Positions 1 to 8,466 of a DNA stretch of 8,466 nt are shown in pieces. Numbering within the stretch: position 1 is the first letter of the stretch; each line of letters opens with the position of its first letter. The DNA comes from a virus. Taxonomy: Duplodnaviria; Heunggongvirae; Uroviricota; Caudoviricetes. The position numbers were made by a program, and so were the translations under genes. The notes under the pieces are model-generated. The model had not been told where the DNA came from. It made no database searches and saw only the letters and a program-made list of their open reading frames with translations. The stretch is from IMG/VR virus record IMGVR_UViG_2693429635_000026. One strand, 5' to 3'.

Positions 1-483
1 ATGACGAAGAAAAAAGCACATAAACCTGGTTCAGCGACCATCGCGCTTAACAAGCGCGCCCGTCACGAATACTTTATCGAAGAAGAGTTCGAAGCGGGAC
101 TTGCCCTGCAAGGCTGGGAGGTTAAATCCCTGCGCGCAGGAAAAGCCAATATCAGCGACAGCTACGTCCTTCTGCGTGACGGAGAGGCATTTCTGTTTGG
201 CGCTAACATCACGCCAATGGCCGTGGCCTCCACGCATGTGGTGTGCGATCCTACCCGTACCCGCAAGTTACTTCTCAACCAGCGCGAACTGGACTCATTG
301 TACGGTCGCGTCAATCGAGAAGGCTATACCGTAGTGGCGCTCTCCCTGTACTGGAAAAATGCCTGGTGCAAAGTGAAAATCGGCGTCGCCAAAGGTAAAA
401 AACAGCACGATAAACGTTCAGATATCAAAGAACGCGAATGGCAGGTGGATAAAGCACGTATCATGAAAAACGCCCACCGTTAA
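1..483 (+). CDS. smpB: SsrA-binding protein SmpB (trans-translation factor), complete 160 aa
   Basis: ATG at 1, TAA at 481-483. The 160-aa translation ([30 protein letters not shown]...[10 protein letters not shown]) matches enterobacterial SmpB as I recall it, and the gene sits immediately upstream of ssrA as in the conserved smpB-ssrA arrangement. Confidence 0.96.
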
Positions 484-644
484 ACCTGCACTCCAATTAT
501 TGACCAGTTCCTCACCGCGCCTCCCTCTCCGGCGGCGCGAATCAACATCTTATTGGCTATCACATCCGACACAAATGTTGCCATCCCATTGCTTAATCGA
601 ATAAAAATCAGGCTACATGGGTGCTAAATCTTTAACGATAACGC

Positions 645-690
645 CATTGAGGCTGGTCATGGCGCTCATAAATCTGGTATACTTACCTTT
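645..690 (+). promoter_or_regulatory. putative sigma70 promoter for ssrA (extended -10)
   Basis: TGgTATACT at 675-683 is an extended -10 element ending about 15 nt upstream of the mature tmRNA 5' end. The -35 is weak or ambiguous (TGGTCA at 654-659 with 18-bp spacing). Assigned from position and motif only. Confidence 0.4.
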
Positions 691-697
691 ACACATT

Positions 698-1060
698 GGG
701 GCTGATTCTGGATTCGACGGGATTTGCGAAACCCAAGGTGCATGCCGAGGGGCGGTTGGCCTCGTAAAAAGCCGCAAAAAATAGTCGCAAACGACGAAAA
801 CTACGCTTTAGCAGCTTAATAACCTGCTTAGAGCCCTCTCTCCCTAGCCTCCGCTCTTAGGACGGGGATCAAGAGAGGTCAAACCCAAAAGAGATCGCGT
901 GGAAGCCCTGCCTGGGGTTGAAGCGTTAAAACTTAATCAGGCTAGTTTGTTAGTGGCGTGTCCGTCCGCAGCTGGCAAGCGAATGTAAAGACTGACTAAG
1001 CATGTAGTACCGAGGATGTAGGAATTTCGGACGCGGGTTCAACTCCCGCCAGCTCCACCA
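698..1060 (+). ncRNA. ssrA: tmRNA (transfer-messenger RNA, SsrA), full length 363 nt
   Basis: Starts GGGGCTGATTCTGGATTCGACGGG (tRNA-like 5' end). The internal tag frame GCA AAC GAC GAA AAC TAC GCT TTA GCA GCT TAA at 787-819 encodes the degradation tag ANDENYALAA. The 3' end is GGTTCAACTCCCGCCAGCTCCACCA (T-arm, acceptor, CCA) at 1036-1060. Confidence 0.95.
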
Positions 1061-1188
1061 ATCATGATTGGACGGTGTAAGGACAACACCAACAAAAACA
1101 GGAAGTTAGCAGTCTCAGCAGGACACCGACCAGACGGTGAGGAGACAAAAAAGGATACGCAAAGGAGCCGCGGCTCTCAAGTGTGAAA

Positions 1189-1217
1189 GAAGCCCGCAAA
1201 TTGCGGGCTTTTTTATT
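1189..1217 (+). terminator. rho-independent terminator downstream of ssrA
   Basis: GC-rich hairpin AGCCCGC-aaatt-GCGGGCT (1191-1209) followed by a T-run TTTTTTATT. Confidence 0.6.
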
Positions 1218-1269
1218 GATCAGTCAACAATAAACAGTAACCGAATGAGAATTTAATAAGGATATTCAT

Positions 1270-2301
1270 ATGGAAGCTACTGTGGATTCGATTGATTTTC
1301 TGATCCGTAGTGAAGATGATTTTCTAAACTTTCTGGAAGAAATGAAAGCCCGAGAGGGGCTTGATTCTAAAGAGTTTATTTTCCCTAACGTAAAGTTTGC
1401 AGGCTGGCCATCCTTAGACATAAATGTAAAAGGAGAGCGGTATCATTCATCAATTACATCAGCAATGTTGTTTGGTATGTCAATGCTCAACGAGGAGATA
1501 CAGCGGGCGTTTGCAACCATACGATACGGATCGCAGAATCTTCAACGCTTGACTAATGAAGACAAGCAACGACTTGATATAAATTTTAAAATTAGCGAAG
1601 GTTCTAGTGATGCGGAAGGCACCACTGACAAGATCATCAACGCAGTAACTGATTTTTTGCGAGATACTATGTCTGGACTGAACGGCTGGCAGAAAATGCT
1701 TGTTATAATCACAATGGTTGGCGCGGCCAGCACATGTGGTTATCACTACATTTCAGAAAATGCCGTAACAGAAAGACATGCAACTGATCGGCAGGTTGAA
1801 ATTGCAAAAACCACATCCGATGGCATAAACAAAGCCATAGAAGCAACATTAGATTATAAAATCTATGGGAAATCAGCGATTAGCGATAAAGTTACTAGTC
1901 ACGGACAAGCAGGTAAAAGTGCTTTAGTGAAGCAATTAGCTGCTGATCCTACTGTCGAAACCGTGACTTTAGGAAATGAGAAACTAACACGACAAGACCT
2001 AAATACCTACAACAGCCGACAATCTGTAGATAGAGAACGTAAAGAACGAACTGATATATTTTCCATCAAAGGTGTAACCAGAACAGGGCCAACAAATCAG
2101 GATATTAATATTAACGTTGTTAGGGTCTCTAATGACGAATGCTTCACAATCAAAGCTTCAGCTGATGTTATCACCCAAGATGAGTTGACAGCTATTGTTG
2201 ACGCTTTGTCAAACAACTCTCATATTAAAATCAGTTACTTAGAGGTAATTGAAAAGGGTGCTGTTTCTATAGGTCAGTTCAACACTATTGTTTCAGAATA
2301 A
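1270..2301 (+). CDS. hypothetical protein, 343 aa, with a central hydrophobic (putative transmembrane) segment; no recognised domain
   Basis: Long uninterrupted ORF with a Shine-Dalgarno-like AAGGA about 8 nt upstream of the ATG (TAAGGATATTCATATG). AT-rich codon usage consistent along its length. The stretch WQKMLVIITMVGAASTCGYHYI near residues 140-161 is hydrophobic. The antisense ORFs 1480..1746 and 1542..1733 are shadows. Confidence 0.72.
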   Translation: MEATVDSIDFLIRSEDDFLNFLEEMKAREGLDSKEFIFPNVKFAGWPSLDINVKGERYHSSITSAMLFGMSMLNEEIQRAFATIRYGSQNLQRLTNEDKQRLDINFKISEGSSDAEGTTDKIINAVTDFLRDTMSGLNGWQKMLVIITMVGAASTCGYHYISENAVTERHATDRQVEIAKTTSDGINKAIEATLDYKIYGKSAISDKVTSHGQAGKSALVKQLAADPTVETVTLGNEKLTRQDLNTYNSRQSVDRERKERTDIFSIKGVTRTGPTNQDININVVRVSNDECFTIKASADVITQDELTAIVDALSNNSHIKISYLEVIEKGAVSIGQFNTIVSE

Positions 2302-2352
2302 TCACTTAACCCCATTTATGTCGGTTGAGGTTATAAGTCACGGAGACCAGAT

Positions 2353-2697
2353 ATGTCCTTAAAGTATGCACATGAAAAATTTCATACTGCAGTACTTACT
2401 CTTGCGGGCCATGGAAGTATTCAAGAACGCTTGATTAATTCGTATGTTTTTAGCCTTGGGCATCTTAAAACAGCCGATGATATTCCAAATGCCTTACAAA
2501 GCAGGTTCGATGAATTATGTAAGGAACTGACTAAGTTTGATGCCACTGGCGATGAGGGGCGAGTTCAAGCAACAGTATCAAAACTTAACGATTTCGAGAT
2601 CAATAAACTGATCGAAGATATTGTCAGTCTTAACGATGATATTTGCATGAAATTGGCTCTGACGGATGAGACTTACCAAGACATACACCAAAGTTAA
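2353..2697 (+). CDS. hypothetical protein, 114 aa, acidic and probably alpha-helical; likely co-transcribed with the upstream 343-aa ORF
   Basis: ATG at 2353 preceded by GGAGA about 7 nt upstream. Same strand as ORF 1270..2301 with a 51-bp gap, and followed by a hairpin terminator. No recognised motifs. Confidence 0.65.
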   Translation: MSLKYAHEKFHTAVLTLAGHGSIQERLINSYVFSLGHLKTADDIPNALQSRFDELCKELTKFDATGDEGRVQATVSKLNDFEINKLIEDIVSLNDDICMKLALTDETYQDIHQS

Positions 2698-2724
2698 TTG
2701 ATTAAATTCAAAAAGTTAACGTTC

Positions 2725-2750
2725 AACCAGCCAGTTTTTGGCTGGTTTAT
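2725..2750. terminator. putative bidirectional hairpin terminator between convergent genes
   Basis: AACCAGCC-agttttt-GGCTGGTT (8-bp stem, 2725-2747) followed by TTTATTGTC on the plus strand and flanked by an A/T tract on the other side. It lies between the stop of ORF 2353..2697 (+) and the stop of ORF 2782..2994 (-). Confidence 0.45.
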
Positions 2751-2781
2751 TGTCTTATAATATTCTTGCTCGAATGATGCA

Positions 2782-2994
2782 CTATTTATGATGTAATCCG
2801 GACATCAGTTCATGGACAAGATTATCTCTTTCATTGTGTTGCAACCGTAAATGCATAGCAAAAAGGTGAGCACTATCCTCATTCCTCTTCAAGCCATGCT
2901 GTTCAAGATACCCGAAAAAACGGCTTCTCTTATCCGCTATTTCCTGAGTCTGACGTGCAACATTTACCAAATTTTCTAGCGTTTTTCTTGGCAT
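2782..2994 (-). CDS. hypothetical small protein, 70 aa
   Basis: The minus-strand ATG at 2992-2994 is preceded by a strong Shine-Dalgarno AGGAGG (revcomp of CCTCCT at 3002-3007) at good spacing. Basic and His-rich; no family recognised. Confidence 0.5.
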   Translation of the reverse strand: MPRKTLENLVNVARQTQEIADKRSRFFGYLEQHGLKRNEDSAHLFAMHLRLQHNERDNLVHELMSGLHHK

Positions 2995-3192
2995 ACTATT
3001 TCCTCCTGAAATTGTTGTAATTCACTAGGATATTCATTTTAATTTGTATCATTTAGTACCAAAACCGCTATCAATTAACAAAGCCATCGTTGTGGTTTAC
3101 CTTGCAGCCGTTTTTTGTCATTGACTCTATGTGAAAATAATGAATCATCATGAGATTGGCTCACACGTTCTTGAATTCGACGAGCTGTGTCT

Positions 3193-3747
3193 TTATTTAT
3201 CTCCTGCCGGAAACCTCTGATACAAAGTCGATACGCCAACATCATAGATAATCGCAACTTTCTGGCGCGGAACTCCTGATGCAATTAATCGTCCGGCTTG
3301 TGCCCATTGTTCTGGTGTAAGTTTGGGACGACGTCCACCAATTCGTCCCTGTGCGCGAGCAGCTTCCAGTCCAGCTTTTGTTCGTTCAACAATCAGTTCT
3401 CGTTCCATTTCAGCCAGGGCCCCCATCACATGAAAGAAAAAGCGCCCCATTGGGGTACTGGTATCAATTGAATCCGTCAGACTACGAAAGTTGATGCCTC
3501 GTTCGCGCAACTCCTCCACCAGCACGACAAGATGCCGCATACTGCGCCCCAGTCGGTCCAGTTTCCAGACCACCAGCGTATCGCCTGCCGATAATGTCCT
3601 GAGCAGTTTTTTCAGTCCCGGCCTTTCGGACTTTGTACCGCTTATCTTGTCTTCAAAAATCAGCTCGCATCCTGCACAGTTCAGCGCATTACGTTGTAGA
3701 TCTGTGTTCTGGTCATTTGTTGACACACGTACATAGCCAATAAGCAT
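3193..3747 (-). CDS. pin: serine-recombinase DNA invertase, Pin/Gin/Hin/Cin family (184 aa)
   Basis: Translation from the internal Met (MLIGYVRVSTNDQNTDLQRNAL...GDTLVVWKLDRLGRSM...GINFRSLTDSIDTS...MGRFFFHVMGALAEMERELI...) has the resolvase/invertase catalytic N-terminus with the active-site Ser in VRVSTNDQ and a C-terminal HTH-like region. It is close to E. coli Pin as I recall it. I take the start as the ATG at 3745-3747 (SD AGGGAGA upstream) rather than the upstream Met at 3783. A gix/pix-like site lies 55 bp upstream. Confidence 0.93.
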   Translation of the reverse strand: MLIGYVRVSTNDQNTDLQRNALNCAGCELIFEDKISGTKSERPGLKKLLRTLSAGDTLVVWKLDRLGRSMRHLVVLVEELRERGINFRSLTDSIDTSTPMGRFFFHVMGALAEMERELIVERTKAGLEAARAQGRIGGRRPKLTPEQWAQAGRLIASGVPRQKVAIIYDVGVSTLYQRFPAGDK

Positions 3748-3773
3748 GGTAGATCTCCCTGACAAAAGCAGGA

Positions 3774-4268
3774 ATGATGCCATTTGCTCGTTATTTCTGC
3801 ATTTTCATAAACGTTGGTTTGGGAGAAGCGGCAAAACGAAATGTGGGCAACGGGGAAAACCAAATCCCTGATATGTCTTTCTGGACGGTTACTGGTGGCA
3901 ATGGAAATTTTGTGATTCGTCAACCTGACGGGCTAATCATTCAGATGGTTACTGTAAGTATAAGCGGTCCAGTGGCGATGAATGGAATGACTGATAATGC
4001 TTATGCCATTACAGGTTCTAATAAGTCTTATATTGCCACAGCCACATTGCCCTTTGTATTTCCTAATAAGGTGCTGGGCGTTATCCCTCTGGTATCAACA
4101 ACAGCTTATGGTGGTGTATCCAGTAATATTACAGGTTCATACGCGACGGCGGTTTGTTCTTTTGCCGCTGTCAGGGGGAATAATACGATTGTGTTCAAAG
4201 TCGACAAACCACTGAATGCAGCCTTTCCTTCAGATACCAGCGTCTCAGCGTTAATCATTGGACGGTAA
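3774..4268 (+). CDS. silent tail-fibre variable C-terminal cassette (Sv copy) with no constant N-terminal region
   Basis: From about 3816 onward the reading frame is identical to the C-terminal roughly 150 aa of the tail fibre gene at 7063..7806 ([17 protein letters not shown]...SALIIGR). The first roughly 14 codons (MMPFARYFCIFINV) are antisense read-through of the pin leader and are not part of the homologous sequence. Probably not expressed in this orientation. Confidence 0.5.
   Translation: MMPFARYFCIFINVGLGEAAKRNVGNGENQIPDMSFWTVTGGNGNFVIRQPDGLIIQMVTVSISGPVAMNGMTDNAYAITGSNKSYIATATLPFVFPNKVLGVIPLVSTTAYGGVSSNITGSYATAVCSFAAVRGNNTIVFKVDKPLNAAFPSDTSVSALIIGR
3802..3827 (+). other. invertase crossover site A (gix/hix/pix-like 26-bp site, proximal to pin)
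   Basis: TTTTCATAAACG-TT-GGTTTGGGAGAA. The half-sites fit the TTnTCnnAAACC pattern of Hin/Gin-family sites around a central 2-bp crossover. The inner half plus crossover (TTGGTTTGGGAGAA) is identical to sites B and C. Confidence 0.6.
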
Positions 4269-4270
4269 GA

Positions 4271-4714
4271 ATGAACTCAGTATTCTTTTCACCCGCAAGT
4301 AAAAGTTTTTATCTGCAAGAATTGTTTCCAGAATATGAGGATGCGGGAACGCTTCCTGATGATGTTATTGAAATTACCAGAGAAACATATGAGCAATTTC
4401 TTGGGCTGCATCCAGAAGGGAAAGAAATTGGCGCTGACAGTTCAGGACGGCCAATATGGATTAATTCCCCGCCGCCTTCAAAAGAGGATGAGATGCTGGC
4501 GGCTGAAATGAAAAAGATATCTTTGGTTTCAGAAGTCAATACCTACATCAATACCCATCAGTGGCCTGGCAAAGCTGCTATTGGTCGTCTGAAAGGTTAC
4601 GAGCTGGAACAATATAATTTATGGCTGGATTATCTGGACGCACTGGAACTGGTTGATACCTCCAGTGCTCCAGATATTGAATGGCCTACGCCTCCGGTAG
4701 TTCAGGCCAGATGA
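4271..4714 (+). CDS. tail fibre assembly protein (Mu U-like chaperone), copy A
   Basis: 147 aa with the Tfa-type C-terminal motif ...DTSSAPDIEWPTPP. Starts 2 bp after the Sv stop, suggesting translational coupling. Identical to the ORF at 6617..7060 (-). Confidence 0.82.
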   Translation: MNSVFFSPASKSFYLQELFPEYEDAGTLPDDVIEITRETYEQFLGLHPEGKEIGADSSGRPIWINSPPPSKEDEMLAAEMKKISLVSEVNTYINTHQWPGKAAIGRLKGYELEQYNLWLDYLDALELVDTSSAPDIEWPTPPVVQAR

Positions 4715-5291
4715 CATCCGGCGCGGTGCTGGTATCTGTTGCAGTCACCGCGTCAATGTAATCCAGCACAGCGTTAAGCCGGGTTGTTTCTGCCTGCGTC
4801 AGCTTCCGCCCGGCCTGCAATTTCAGCTGAATCAGACTAATGGAAGCCATAGCAGCATCAATCAGTGACTGGCGCCGTACTTCTGCCGCGTCTACTGCGG
4901 CGTTATGCTGTGCCTCAGTATCGGTCACCCATTTCTCACCATCCCATTTATCGTATGACGTTAACGGGGCGATAGTGGTTGTATTTTCAGGGTAATCACC
5001 CGGAACTGTGATTTCTTTTGATTCTCCTGTTTCGGTGCTATAGACGATTTCACCGCGATGGTCTGGCACATATTCCCATGAGTTAAAATCTGCAGAACGG
5101 CAAATTGCATAACCAGCTTTATATGAGCCAGGAGCATCTAAACAGGAACATGCCGGGATACCAACACCCACAGCAAGATATTCAGTTGATGTGGAAATAT
5201 ATTCCCGTGTTTCACCATCATAATTATAAACGGTAATGTCTCCGGCCTTTGTGGCGATGAGTTCATTATTTAATACAGCTTTACTTATCAT
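4686..5291 (-). CDS. tail fibre assembly protein (Mu U'-like chaperone), copy A
   Basis: 201 aa ending ...DTSTAPDVIWPELPEA (Tfa family C-terminal motif). Identical to the ORF at 6040..6645 (+). Its 3' end overlaps the 3' end of 4271..4714 convergently by 29 bp. Confidence 0.82.
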   Translation of the reverse strand: MISKAVLNNELIATKAGDITVYNYDGETREYISTSTEYLAVGVGIPACSCLDAPGSYKAGYAICRSADFNSWEYVPDHRGEIVYSTETGESKEITVPGDYPENTTTIAPLTSYDKWDGEKWVTDTEAQHNAAVDAAEVRRQSLIDAAMASISLIQLKLQAGRKLTQAETTRLNAVLDYIDAVTATDTSTAPDVIWPELPEA

Positions 5292-5570
5292 GCAGCCCTC
5301 ACAATATAATTAAAGGCGATGTTACGGGAGCGGGTTTCAGATGCTGTGCGAACTGAGCGAGATGCGTCGAATGTCCAGTTATAAGCGCCATAACCCTCAA
5401 TAATTTCGGCTTCCTTTAGACCTGTAGATAATACTTGCCCATGTTGACTAAATGGCCCTGAACTAAGTACGTCTCTAAAAAGCTGGGTACGCCCAAAAGA
5501 ACCAACAATATTCTGAATTGCATCATTCTGTGCAGATAATAAGTTACGACCAGAGTCAATCCCGCGCCCA
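5288..5570 (-). pseudogene. 5'-truncated copy of the tail-collar-type variable cassette Sv' (C-terminal roughly 93 codons, no start)
   Basis: Reverse complement of 5761..6043, which is the C-terminal part of ORF 5576..6043 (...ETRSRNIAFNYIVRAA). The duplication breakpoint at 5570/5571 cuts the cassette mid-gene, and there is no in-frame Met in the retained part. Confidence 0.55.
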
Positions 5571-5584
5571 TTGGTTTGGGAGAA
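5559..5584 (+). other. invertase crossover site C (conserved inner half and crossover, degenerate outer half)
   Basis: ATCCCGCGCCCA-TT-GGTTTGGGAGAA. The crossover and inner half are identical to sites A and B, but the outer half is a poor match. Recombination with site B would fuse the constant part of S in frame to Sv'. Confidence 0.55.
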
Positions 5585-6043
5585 GGTTCGGCATTACCCG
5601 TTGGTGTGCCTGTTCCGTGGCCTTCCGCCACTCCGCCAACGGGGTGGCTAAAATGTAACGGAGCAGTATTTTCTTCTGAAAAGTACCCAAATCTGGCAAA
5701 GGCTTACCCAACATTAAAATTACCAGATTTACGCGGTGAATTTATTCGTGGCTGGGATGATGGGCGCGGGATTGACTCTGGTCGTAACTTATTATCTGCA
5801 CAGAATGATGCAATTCAGAATATTGTTGGTTCTTTTGGGCGTACCCAGCTTTTTAGAGACGTACTTAGTTCAGGGCCATTTAGTCAACATGGGCAAGTAT
5901 TATCTACAGGTCTAAAGGAAGCCGAAATTATTGAGGGTTATGGCGCTTATAACTGGACATTCGACGCATCTCGCTCAGTTCGCACAGCATCTGAAACCCG
6001 CTCCCGTAACATCGCCTTTAATTATATTGTGAGGGCTGCATGA
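5576..6043 (+). CDS. alternative tail-fibre variable C-terminal cassette Sv' (phage tail-collar-like receptor-binding domain), currently unfused
   Basis: The translation carries motifs I recall from tail-fibre C-termini of the tail-collar type (ALPVGVPVPWPSATPPTGWLKCNGAVFSSEKYPNLA...LPDLRGEFIRGWDDGRGIDSGR...ETRSRNIAFNYIVRAA). The ORF-track start is a TTG lying inside site C, so the real product would be made only as a fusion after inversion. Its stop overlaps the downstream tfa start (ATGA). Confidence 0.75.
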   Translation: MGEGSALPVGVPVPWPSATPPTGWLKCNGAVFSSEKYPNLAKAYPTLKLPDLRGEFIRGWDDGRGIDSGRNLLSAQNDAIQNIVGSFGRTQLFRDVLSSGPFSQHGQVLSTGLKEAEIIEGYGAYNWTFDASRSVRTASETRSRNIAFNYIVRAA

Positions 6044-6645
6044 TAAGTAAAGCTGTATTAAATAATGAACTCATCGCCACAAAGGCCGGAGACATTACCG
6101 TTTATAATTATGATGGTGAAACACGGGAATATATTTCCACATCAACTGAATATCTTGCTGTGGGTGTTGGTATCCCGGCATGTTCCTGTTTAGATGCTCC
6201 TGGCTCATATAAAGCTGGTTATGCAATTTGCCGTTCTGCAGATTTTAACTCATGGGAATATGTGCCAGACCATCGCGGTGAAATCGTCTATAGCACCGAA
6301 ACAGGAGAATCAAAAGAAATCACAGTTCCGGGTGATTACCCTGAAAATACAACCACTATCGCCCCGTTAACGTCATACGATAAATGGGATGGTGAGAAAT
6401 GGGTGACCGATACTGAGGCACAGCATAACGCCGCAGTAGACGCGGCAGAAGTACGGCGCCAGTCACTGATTGATGCTGCTATGGCTTCCATTAGTCTGAT
6501 TCAGCTGAAATTGCAGGCCGGGCGGAAGCTGACGCAGGCAGAAACAACCCGGCTTAACGCTGTGCTGGATTACATTGACGCGGTGACTGCAACAGATACC
6601 AGCACCGCGCCGGATGTCATCTGGCCTGAACTACCGGAGGCGTAG
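6040..6645 (+). CDS. tail fibre assembly protein (U'-like), copy B, cognate chaperone of Sv'
   Basis: 201 aa, Tfa C-terminal motif, start overlapping the Sv' stop (ATGA), SD GAGGG upstream. Confidence 0.88.
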   Translation: MISKAVLNNELIATKAGDITVYNYDGETREYISTSTEYLAVGVGIPACSCLDAPGSYKAGYAICRSADFNSWEYVPDHRGEIVYSTETGESKEITVPGDYPENTTTIAPLTSYDKWDGEKWVTDTEAQHNAAVDAAEVRRQSLIDAAMASISLIQLKLQAGRKLTQAETTRLNAVLDYIDAVTATDTSTAPDVIWPELPEA

Positions 6646-7060
6646 GCCATTCAATATCTGGAGCACTGGAGGTATCAACCAGTTCCAGTGCGTCCAGATA
6701 ATCCAGCCATAAATTATATTGTTCCAGCTCGTAACCTTTCAGACGACCAATAGCAGCTTTGCCAGGCCACTGATGGGTATTGATGTAGGTATTGACTTCT
6801 GAAACCAAAGATATCTTTTTCATTTCAGCCGCCAGCATCTCATCCTCTTTTGAAGGCGGCGGGGAATTAATCCATATTGGCCGTCCTGAACTGTCAGCGC
6901 CAATTTCTTTCCCTTCTGGATGCAGCCCAAGAAATTGCTCATATGTTTCTCTGGTAATTTCAATAACATCATCAGGAAGCGTTCCCGCATCCTCATATTC
7001 TGGAAACAATTCTTGCAGATAAAAACTTTTACTTGCGGGTGAAAAGAATACTGAGTTCAT
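6617..7060 (-). CDS. tail fibre assembly protein (U-like), copy B, cognate chaperone of the expressed tail fibre
   Basis: 147 aa. Starts 2 bp after the stop of the tail fibre gene at 7063..7806 on the same strand. Tfa-type C-terminus. Confidence 0.88.
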   Translation of the reverse strand: MNSVFFSPASKSFYLQELFPEYEDAGTLPDDVIEITRETYEQFLGLHPEGKEIGADSSGRPIWINSPPPSKEDEMLAAEMKKISLVSEVNTYINTHQWPGKAAIGRLKGYELEQYNLWLDYLDALELVDTSSAPDIEWPTPPVVQAR

Positions 7061-7062
7061 TC

Positions 7063-7806
7063 TTACCGTCCAATGATTAACGCTGAGACGCTGGTATCTG
7101 AAGGAAAGGCTGCATTCAGTGGTTTGTCGACTTTGAACACAATCGTATTATTCCCCCTGACAGCGGCAAAAGAACAAACCGCCGTCGCGTATGAACCTGT
7201 AATATTACTGGATACACCACCATAAGCTGTTGTTGATACCAGAGGGATAACGCCCAGCACCTTATTAGGAAATACAAAGGGCAATGTGGCTGTGGCAATA
7301 TAAGACTTATTAGAACCTGTAATGGCATAAGCATTATCAGTCATTCCATTCATCGCCACTGGACCGCTTATACTTACAGTAACCATCTGAATGATTAGCC
7401 CGTCAGGTTGACGAATCACAAAATTTCCATTGCCACCAGTAACCGTCCAGAAAGACATATCAGGGATTTGGTTTTCCCCGTTGCCCACATTTCGTTTTGC
7501 CGCTTCTCCCAAACCAAGGTTTTCGAGAGCCGTTTTCACCGTGCCATCAGATTTGATATCGCCAAACGGATTCTTGCGGCTTAACAGCAGCGCACGAAGC
7601 GCGGTAAGCAGCTGGTCATGCCGCCCCTTCTCCAGGCTGGCACCGGATGCCTCCACCACGCTGCAGAGTTCTTCCTGCAACATGTCAAAGTAGTCATCAT
7701 CCAGATCGGTGGCAGGTGTGCCGGTCTGGGGGTTACCACGGGTAAAACCGTTCTTACCCGCGCCGAACTTATCCTTCTGCGCGGTTTTCGTGTCTATACG
7801 ATGCAT
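7063..7806 (-). CDS. phage tail fibre protein S (constant N-terminal part 7518..7806 fused to variable part Sv 7063..7517), 247 aa
   Basis: ATG at 7804-7806 (minus strand) with SD GGAG upstream, immediately after the stop of the upstream tail gene. Crossover site B lies inside the ORF at the ...ENLG|LGEAA... junction, as expected for Mu S, P1 and e14-type invertible tail fibre genes. Confidence 0.88.
7504..7529 (+). other. invertase crossover site B (gix/pix-like, inside the tail fibre gene at the constant/variable boundary)
   Basis: Plus strand TTCTCCCAAACC-AA-GGTTTTCGAGAG. Its reverse complement CTCTCGAAAACC-TT-GGTTTGGGAGAA is inverted relative to sites A and C, with both half-sites fitting the TTnTCnnAAACC pattern. 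Confidence 0.65.
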
Positions 7807-7809
7807 GGA

Positions 7810-8464
<655 letters not shown>

Positions 8465-8466
8465 CT

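Follow-up and report, generated by a model that had tools for sequence, protein, structure and literature searches.

According to our analysis, the window, an 8,466-nucleotide stretch of DNA from a virus of the Caudoviricetes (IMG/VR record IMGVR_UViG_2693429635_000026), carries an ordinary e14-type Pin tail-fibre inversion switch, a well-known kind of locus, drawn out here into a 3.7-kb near-palindrome. On balance we favour the view that the near-palindrome arose during assembly or finishing from a culture in which the invertible segment was present in both orientations, and we deem such an artefact somewhat more likely than a true chromosome structure.

The inverted repeat and its gene content

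A repeat search found two arms of 1,763 nt (3809-5571 and 5760-7522) with 188 nt between them, within which self-BLAST returned a single mismatch, G3813 versus G7518; no second long repeat was found in the window by this search. The exact mirror runs from 3814 to 5571, which is the reverse complement of 5760-7517 over 1,758 nt with 0 mismatches and a 188-nt spacer, and self-alignment thereby bears out the 100% arm identity expected in an earlier note on this DNA. The inverted duplication described there as 3814-5570 and 5761-7517, 190 nt apart, is real, but its bounds were off by one base per arm, since the pairing takes in T5571 and A5760 as well. The arms agree base for base, with no private substitutions in either copy, and their outer and inner limits fall precisely on central dinucleotides, those of the two crossover sites. 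An exact inverted repeat of 1.76 kb cannot have originated by chance. The left arm (3814..5571, + strand) is the invertible block in the state with Sv next to pin, minus its last 189 nt, and the complete invertible block, TT...AA (5571..7517, + strand; 1,947 nt), is in the state with Sv' next to pin. The unique spacer (5572..5759, + strand; 188 nt) makes up codons 1-61 of the complete Sv' copy. When single-stranded, the 788 nt at the centre are predicted to fold into a 300-bp stem with the spacer as its loop (-423 kcal/mol, z = -77).

The open reading frames and Pfam matches agree with the earlier gene count, in which Sv, U and U' occur twice and Sv' once and a half. Sv lies at 3816-4268 (+) and 7063-7515 (-), U at 4271-4714 (+) and 6617-7060 (-), and U' at 4686-5291 (-) and 6040-6645 (+), while Sv' is found as a single complete ORF (5576-6043, +) and as a truncated copy of its 3' 95 codons within the left arm (5287-5571, -). 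U and U' are Caudo_TAP chaperones, one behind each fibre C-terminus, and Sv' has a Collar domain. The tail-fibre gene predicted to be the expressed one (7063..7806, -) combines the constant head Sc (7518-7806) with Sv in one reading frame; this 247-aa ORF belongs to PHROG tail fibre families, and an identical protein is encoded by the loci L002 (CP180607), L040 and L044. In the locus of strain 602687 (L001) the Sc-Sv' fusion has 253 aa, so that alternative C-termini stand in frame on one constant head.

An intact pinE-type serine DNA invertase of 184 aa is encoded at 3193..3747 (-), as judged by Pfam and by alignment with K-12. Pfam assigns Resolvase (1.5e-51) to its N-terminal catalytic part and HTH_7 (3.6e-13) to its C-terminal part, the catalytic YVRVST motif is present, and 180/184 aa and 523/555 nt (94%) are identical to K-12 PinE; the ORF is annotated pinE in both L001 and L002. 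At the other end, ymfQ (7810..8382, -) encodes a Mu gp48-like baseplate protein according to Pfam (Phage_Mu_Gp48) and to the annotation of the same two loci. It is the last structural gene left in the host element, a decayed prophage adjoining ssrA in E. coli and cut by an IS3 element, which comes next. Since the switch lies within a decayed prophage, no direct fitness effect is expected, whether the palindrome is real or an artefact.

Crossover sites and the novel junction

Gin/Cin-type sites have a 12-2-12 design, for which a consensus table is available (PMC4134206). Candidate sites were scored with a half-site PWM built from 12 half-sites, six from E. coli-type loci compared here and six hix/gix/cix halves, and with the Gin-type inner-core motif (PMC5175349). 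Two 26-bp sites of this design lie in inverted orientation with matching central dinucleotides. The pin-proximal site R, TTTTCATAAACG TT GGTTTGGGAGAA (3802..3827, +; central TT at 3814-3815), is identical to the pin-proximal site of K-12 e14, with half-site scores of 11.9/17.3 and an inner core, AAASSWWSSTTT, that matches at 12/12 positions. The fibre-proximal site L, TTCTCCCAAACC AA GGTTTTCGAGAG (7504..7529, +; central AA at 7516-7517), is likewise identical to its e14 counterpart, with half-site scores of 17.3/15.1 and the same core (12/12).

The record contains only one novel junction, J, at 5571/5572, within ATCCCGCGCCCA TT GGTTTGGGAGAA (5559..5584, +; central TT at 5571-5572). Its left half is the reverse complement of the Sv'-internal positions 5761-5772, and its right half is a perfect inner half-site, the third in the window, on whose central TT the right side of the junction falls exactly. 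The half-site scores are -7.6/17.3 and the core matches at 8/12 positions. The two sides share 1 nt of microhomology (T5571/A5760), and T5572 is underivable from the Sv' side. The parent of the left side, q' (5747..5772, +), is the mirror of the left-arm end inside Sv' and is not a crossover site: 69% of the 26-mers of the segment score at least as high on the half-site PWM, and the core matches at 2/12 positions. Examined as a quasi-site for Pin, q' was rejected as resembling random sequence, with GA/TC as its central dinucleotide versus AA/TT. Separately, positions 5749-5760 bear a weak, gapped, direct resemblance to the half-site at 5572-5584 (9/13 by eye), in an orientation that is wrong for a site.

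A 100-nt probe across J matched 0 of 5,426 complete E. coli genomes, although 624 of them share the flanks of the window; the 15 listed matches to the right half start exactly at 5571. The exact 38-mer of J was not found in GTDB representatives, IMG/VR or JGI metagenomes, and a degenerate pattern (WTTGG...) for any unnatural junction at the Sv' start gave 0 matches in the same three collections. Two ORFs that span J are not on record.

Single-copy relatives and flip states

Cut at J, the window resolves into two known single-copy arrangements: 1-5571 is 100% identical to positions 902-6472 of L001, in one flip state, and 5571-8466 is 100% identical to positions 4715-7610 of L002, as well as to L040 and L044, in the other. 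The window thus equals a single-copy locus plus 1,757 nt. Every comparator searched has one copy of the 1.95-kb segment, in either orientation, and look-ups with four proteins of the window returned only single-copy loci among the matches listed, the 24 blocks with the longest contigs; comparison with the homologous locus, a check named in the earlier note, accordingly found the close relatives to be single-copy. About 15 identical bases are common to the two segment ends in these relatives, and base -1 is either G or C in natural loci. Between L021 (5,150,578 bp) and L040 (5,150,576 bp) the flanks are 100% identical (5,023 + 4,556 nt) and the 1.95-kb block is inverted; judged from such genome pairs, the segment is flipping in real time at this ssrA-side locus.

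Origin of the palindrome

Of the three readings offered in the earlier note, a very recent event and an artefact of a mixed population both survive, and we lean to the artefact; maintenance by gene conversion is unsupported, because the duplication is absent from every other genome searched.

In its normal state, the locus holds one 1.95-kb segment (Sv-U / U'-Sv') between the two 26-bp sites, and inversion by Pin determines whether Sv or Sv' is fused to the constant head of the tail fibre. If the source DNA came from a culture with both orientations, the finished sequence could string together two copies of opposite state, a partial one that runs from the pin side to an arbitrary point and a complete one that begins at the exact base where the two states cease to align. 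Concretely, a long-read contig may have been broken inside the mixed segment, with ends in opposite orientations, so that a direct overlap would have gone undetected; the ends may then have been joined at circularisation and the record rotated afterwards. As such an artefact would have it, each copy corresponds to one flip state, the copies do not differ, and close relatives lack the structure. Because base -1 is G or C, the right edge of J is the exact end of identity between the states, and an overlap- or trim-based process would therefore stop there without an enzyme, whereas the left edge, which lacks any site or homology and has 1 nt of microhomology, has the look of an arbitrary read or contig end.

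There is precedent for such a history in EC958, where about 50% of the PacBio reads had inverted tail-fibre segments, which led to spurious contigs, and the authors warned that merging such contigs gives "artefactual duplications in phage regions" (PMC4134206). Within the cassette family itself, the public assembly L003 contains 115-nt exact repeated blocks and a 130-nt perfect palindrome, which amount to assembler damage. A pure de Bruijn-graph path artefact was considered separately and set aside, as the window is free of k-mer-sized repeated blocks like those of L003. Long identical arms with a short spacer form the least stable class of inverted repeats, and E. coli replication forks still stall at an inverted repeat with a 52-bp spacer (PMC7999016); the hairpin predicted here is very stable, and this counts for the artefact. 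Against it, simple de Bruijn or overlap paths cannot create J, and at least one molecule or blunt join containing J is needed. In addition, J retains both bases of its central TT, an outcome to be expected of recombinase chemistry or of priming at a 3' end cut by Pin, and with a spacer of 188 nt the structure may survive for a while. If the palindrome is an artefact, invertible prophage segments are spots at which finished genomes can contain duplications and palindromes that are false, along with surplus "tail protein" genes, and the window displays a recognizable signature: arms that end on crossover dinucleotides, one truncated copy, and halves that match the flip states.

The main rival is a real, very recent and partial inverted duplication started by Pin, which on our estimate is possible but less likely. 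In a copy with Sv' next to pin, the pin-proximal site would have been cut by Pin, and the cut end would have been joined to an internal Sv' position of a sister-chromosome copy in the opposite state. The join would have been made by aberrant strand exchange with a non-site or else by repair of, or priming at, the cleaved 3' end. In an equivalent scheme, a tandem duplication of 1,757 bp (join point q|R) would have come first, its distal copy being flipped later. The right side of J, a central TT and a perfect half-site with a T5572 that Sv' could not supply, is expected if the Pin-cut bottom strand was retained. On its left, the left arm is bounded by a normal recombinant site, and illegitimate events typically leave a truncated copy and an unrelated breakpoint. 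Pin itself is intact and active at the locus, a simulated R x L inversion changes only 5572-5759, and a similar second singleton, with 962-nt exact arms and a 197-nt spacer, is present in the Pin segment of APEC O78. The partner of the join speaks against this origin, since q' is no quasi-site either by PWM or by its Gin-type core and has TC in place of TT. Invertases disfavour intermolecular reactions, and they depend on supercoiling, on a cis enhancer and on the binding of two dimers; moreover, the priming route has 1 nt of microhomology to work with, and J is unique among more than 5,400 genomes, the APEC O78 junction being a singleton too. The full scenario, in which a Pin-cut site was joined to a non-site in a second chromosome copy of opposite state, E. 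coli tolerates the palindrome and the tail fibre is frozen, seems doubtful to us.

Were the duplication real, inversion of the whole region by Pin would alter only the spacer, so that the switch would be locked, and with Pin as the initiator both Pin isomers would keep Sv on the fibre head. The palindrome would then document a natural case of a serine invertase doing damage off target. It would imply that such enzymes make occasional illegitimate joins in nature, that an event of this kind locks a phase-variable receptor-binding protein, and that enterobacterial chromosomes can retain a perfect inverted repeat of 1.76 kb whose arms lie 188 nt apart.

An inverted duplication formed without Pin is highly improbable, whether replication switched templates, a broken end snapped back or the two flip isomers underwent homologous exchange. 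The coincidence of J with a site centre would be luck, and a random breakpoint would fall in a given 2-3-nt slot of the ~2-kb segment with a chance of about 0.1%. For E. coli and yeast there are documented inverted duplications that have palindromes and breaks at their centres (PMC3315005, PMC10622511), and the APEC O78 junction at near-homologous tfa positions would suit such an origin; nevertheless, inverted or direct homology at J is limited to 1 nt, and a simple fold-back would carry the arm past the crossover site into the fibre head, which the arm does not enter. Two of these routes were also rejected individually: homologous or homeologous exchange between flip isomers, whose parental positions lack flanking similarity and have 1 nt in common, and snap-back priming (fold-back duplication), for which the needed inverted microhomology is absent beyond that 1 nt (T5571/A5760).

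Least credible of all is a functional multiple-inversion system of three sites in which J works as the third and which selection or gene conversion maintains, for although J has one perfect half-site and the right central dinucleotide, and a J x L inversion would in principle bring Sv' to the fibre head, its other half is unrelated to any half-site (-7.6, with a core of 8/12), the two "cassette sets" do not differ from each other, and the arrangement is in no other genome searched, the host element being an IS3-cut decayed prophage.

Comparison with known inversion systems

The locus shares with the e14 P segment and PinE of K-12 (stfP-tfaP / tfaE-stfE) both 26-bp sites, which are identical, the invertase (180/184 aa), the order ymfQ - fibre head - segment - pin, and DNA identities of 89% for tfaE and 96% for ymfQ/Sc. 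It differs in that e14 lies in icd, whereas the studied element is next to ssrA, carries another Sv/U cassette and is IS3-trimmed, and in that 1.9 head-to-head copies of the segment are present in the studied record only.

The Mu G segment with Gin and the P1 C segment with Cin involve the same enzyme family and likewise provide alternative fibre C-termini with their own chaperones. Their terminal inverted repeats, 34 bp in Mu G and ~0.6 kb in P1 C, each flank a unique interior, whereas 95% of the region studied here is repeat and its interior is 188 nt. The p15B Min system has six good sites and several different fibre cassettes; the studied region, too, has several fibre cassettes and at least three site-like sequences, but its third "site" has one good half and its cassettes are exact duplicates. 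Of the features that mark multiple inversion, namely a third site with two proper halves, different cassettes and an arrangement common to relatives, none was found at this locus.

Natural terminal repeats of Pin/Gin/Cin-type segments can be as short as the 26-bp site itself or extend, imperfectly matched, over a few hundred bp, those of the EC958 segments being 36, 227 and 508 bp long (PMC4134206). Together with the ~15 bases of the single-copy relatives, these values agree with the earlier statement that known segments have short or moderate terminal repeats. The spurious contigs of EC958 (Forde et al. 2014) parallel the studied record in the active invertase, the mixed culture and the presence of both states in the assembler output; there the second state remained in separate contigs, whereas here the two states are fused in the chromosome and one copy is truncated.

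A palindromic probe for paired inverted tfaE copies matched 3 of 2,410 genomes, two of which have ordinary diverged U/U' pairs and one an exact palindrome, that of APEC O78 (NC_020163.1). Like the studied record, it is an exact inverted duplication (962-nt arms, 197-nt spacer) in an e14-type segment, has the same cassette at both ends and is a singleton among the 5,426 genomes, even among its 100%-identical relatives; since both junctions are singletons, neither shows inheritance. It is centred on the tfa 3' ends and not on the Sv' 5' end, and its junction, which includes three extra bases, connects near-homologous positions of tfa and does not fall on a crossover site. If the palindrome studied here is true, the two cases together would point to recurrent self-destruction of inversion switches.

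Extent of the inverted duplication

A repeat search of the window returned a long inverted repeat, with arms at positions 3809 to 5571 and 5760 to 7522 separated by a spacer of 188 nt, and no further long inverted repeats anywhere in the window. When the window was aligned with itself by BLAST, these arms showed one mismatch, G3813 against G7518; since this is the sole mismatch, the exact mirror is bounded at 3814 to 5571 and 5760 to 7517. According to this self-alignment, which the earlier note had proposed as a check, the exact arms are 100% identical over 1,758 nt, with 0 differences. The inverted duplication of the tail fiber region that the earlier note claimed is therefore borne out, and its coordinates were off by no more than one base in each arm. 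In a single-stranded DNA fold, the spacer is the loop on a 300-bp stem formed by the central 788 nt (−423 kcal/mol, z = −77).

The ends of the exact arms (3814 and 7517) are the central dinucleotides of two 26-bp crossover sites, namely, the pin-proximal site R at 3802 to 3827 (TTTTCATAAACG-TT-GGTTTGGGAGAA) and the fiber-proximal site L at 7504 to 7529 (TTCTCCCAAACC-AA-GGTTTTCGAGAG). Both sites match the inner core AAASSWWSSTTT at 12 of 12 positions, a motif whose importance for the catalytic domain of the related invertase Gin has been reported (PMC5175349).

The same locus in other genomes

Complete Escherichia coli genomes with the same ssrA-adjacent island carry the segment in one copy, which answers the comparison with close relatives that the earlier note had also suggested. 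In strain 602687, the Sv cassette (one of the two alternative C-terminal cassettes of the tail fiber) lies beside pin and the alternative cassette Sv' is fused to the fiber head, while in CP180607 the segment is reversed. Window positions 1 to 5571 correspond at 100% identity to 902 to 6472 of the 602687 locus, and positions 5571 to 8466 to 4715 to 7610 of the CP180607 locus, and likewise to two more loci (L040 and L044). Since the halves match these two loci at 100%, the window amounts to the single-copy locus with 1,757 nt added. The cassette proteins are single copy at all other places among those listed.

A 1.95-kb block is inverted between the loci L021 (GCA_977067085.1, 10540 to 12496) and L040 (GCA_977064935.1, 6785 to 8741), whose chromosomes measure 5,150,578 and 5,150,576 bp, respectively, and whose flanks at the ssrA island are 100% identical. 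Because the two share their flanks and carry the segment in opposite orientations, we regard these sequences as direct evidence that Pin currently flips exactly the window's segment inside a clone.

The crossover-site region supplies, through its pin-proximal half, a separate start codon to the silent cassette on the pin side (3774 to 4268; 5576 to 6043); for Sv this is the ATG at 3774/3777, and in CP180607 Sv' has the equivalent ATG. As a consequence, databases treat these promoter-distal pieces as proteins in their own right, named "hypothetical" or "phage tail," and the 163-aa Sv fragment is present in 8,261 blocks of the collection.

The novel junction and the origin of the duplication

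The only join in the window that is missing from the normal states is the junction J (ATCCCGCGCCCA-TT-GGTTTGGGAGAA, 5559 to 5584), between the truncated left copy and the complete right copy of the segment. To its right, the complete block sets in at the central TT of site R, and the 15 natural matches listed for the right half of a 100-nt J probe start exactly at 5571. The sequence to its left is Sv' from codon 62 on, in reverse complement, and the two parents of J have a single base in common, T5571. J was found in 0 of 5,426 complete E. coli genomes, nor was it found in GTDB (one genome per species), IMG/VR, or JGI metagenome contigs, and 0 cases came from a degenerate pattern search for unnatural sequence of any kind ahead of this Sv' start.

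Recombination at a quasi-site, judged by sequence resemblance, was considered for J and rejected, the parent of its left side being unlike a crossover site. For this stretch inside Sv' (5747 to 5772), which mirrors the end of the left arm, 69% of the 26-mers of the segment score at least as high on the half-site matrix, only 2 of 12 positions agree with the inner core, and TC would take the place of TT as the central dinucleotide.

We lean toward an assembly artefact as the origin of the duplication in this record; the doubling as such is most likely not biological. The two halves of the window each reproduce one flip state exactly, with no difference between the arms; this record alone shows the structure, and cultures are known to be mixed at the locus. 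There is a published precedent, in that mixed orientation of such segments leads assemblers to output the other orientation as well, and artefactual duplications are explicitly warned of (PMC4134206), and an assembly of a related e14 locus (L003) bears obvious assembler damage. Furthermore, the left side of J has neither a site nor homology and resembles an arbitrary read or contig end. The position of J on a site center, at first sight proof of recombinase chemistry, is not unique evidence for it. The central dinucleotide is the exact end of identity between the two orientation states, since one step outward the base differs between the two contexts (G against C), and the ends of read trimming or of overlaps would therefore fall there too. 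A contig may have broken within the mixed segment, its two ends carrying the segment in opposite orientations, and end-to-end closure of that contig would yield every feature seen. However, such a join presupposes either carelessness at some step or a molecule that was chimeric, and the TT retained at J is what a Pin-cut end would supply.

The same TT speaks for a real duplication initiated by Pin, which we hold to be possible yet less probable than an artefact. Here Pin, or the repair of a Pin break, would have joined its own site to a nonsite in a second copy of the chromosome in the opposite state. Since invertases require two bound dimers, an enhancer in cis, and supercoiling, such joining should be very rare. 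A real duplication independent of Pin is improbable, and a maintained three-site system is more improbable still.

In the L003 locus (GCA_019583665.1, VDBH01000001.1, 5380 to 10330), two tandem cassette sets are ~95% identical, with many exact 115-nt blocks that recur in direct as well as inverted orientation and, at 7881 to 8010, a perfect palindrome of 65+65 nt. This arrangement looks like an assembler graph-path artefact at an invertible segment.

Consequences if the duplication were real

Inversion in silico between the two good sites changes only positions 5572 to 5759, and Sv therefore stays on the fiber head in both Pin isomers. If the duplication were real, the switch would thus be locked, and Sv' could come into play solely via recombination at the defective J site. 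The stability of palindromes generally falls with longer and more identical arms and with shorter spacers, and in E. coli forks were still stalled with a spacer as long as 52 bp, since at least ~1.5 kb of the lagging-strand template is single stranded (PMC7999016). The 188-nt spacer would lower the risk of instability without removing it.

A second palindromic Pin segment

A palindromic tfaE probe identified two inverted tfaE copies near each other in 3 of 2,410 genomes, two of which harbor ordinary diverged chaperone pairs. The third is APEC O78 (NC_020163.1), where the Pin segment is a near-palindrome (locus positions 3027 to 5147, record positions 1,002,064 to 1,004,184) with arms of 962 nt that are 100% complementary and a spacer of 197 nt. 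Sv' and its chaperone gene U' stand at both ends of this segment, while of the other chaperone gene, U, just a 111-nt fragment survives. At its junction (about 4182 to 4186 of the locus), the two chaperone genes meet at near-homologous positions, with AAC as three additional, unexplained bases. The rest of the 5,426 genomes all lack this junction, even relatives with 100% identity as far as that point. As this case shows, Pin segments do turn up in public genomes as exact palindromes, artefactual or real, in the form of singletons.

Locus anatomy and relation to known inversion systems

The window starts with smpB (1 to 483) and the tmRNA gene ssrA (698 to 1060). In three loci with another integrase-bearing element upstream of the island (CP180607, L021, and L040), identity to the window begins at 1027 to 1058, inside the last bases of ssrA (3' end, 1027 to 1060), which suggests that the attachment core is repeated and that elements occupy the ssrA site in tandem. 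Between ssrA and pin lie three small genes without family assignment (1270 to 2994), encoding 343, 114, and 70 aa, with a G+C content of ~0.37 to 0.38 versus ~0.5 in the flanks. These genes are found together with pin in several different genomic settings (L016, L019, L021, and L045). Pfam and PADLOC gave 0 matches for all three, and the sole match of the 343-aa protein was PHROG 6191, of unknown function.

On the minus strand, the tail fiber gene (7063 to 7806, 247 aa) adjoins the Mu-gp48/YmfQ baseplate gene (7810 to 8382). The latter encodes 190 aa and is directly followed by an IS3-family element (annotated in the 602687 and CP180607 loci; window 7810 to 8466), while four other loci (L018, L019, L022, and L023) retain a 194-aa ymfQ and the entire Mu-like baseplate cluster. 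In the lineage of the window, the prophage is cut down to fiber, chaperones, pin, and the three unknown genes.

The serine invertase gene is intact (3193 to 3747, minus strand; Resolvase and HTH_7 domains), and its product is identical at 180 of 184 aa to the PinE encoded by e14, a cryptic prophage of K-12. Sequence comparison showed each crossover site to be identical to its e14 counterpart. Membership of the element among multiple-inversion systems was rejected. All four defining features tested place it with the Hin/Gin/Cin/Pin inversion switches, of the e14 type, and the duplication, if real, would be a self-inflicted, locking rearrangement of this known kind of switch.
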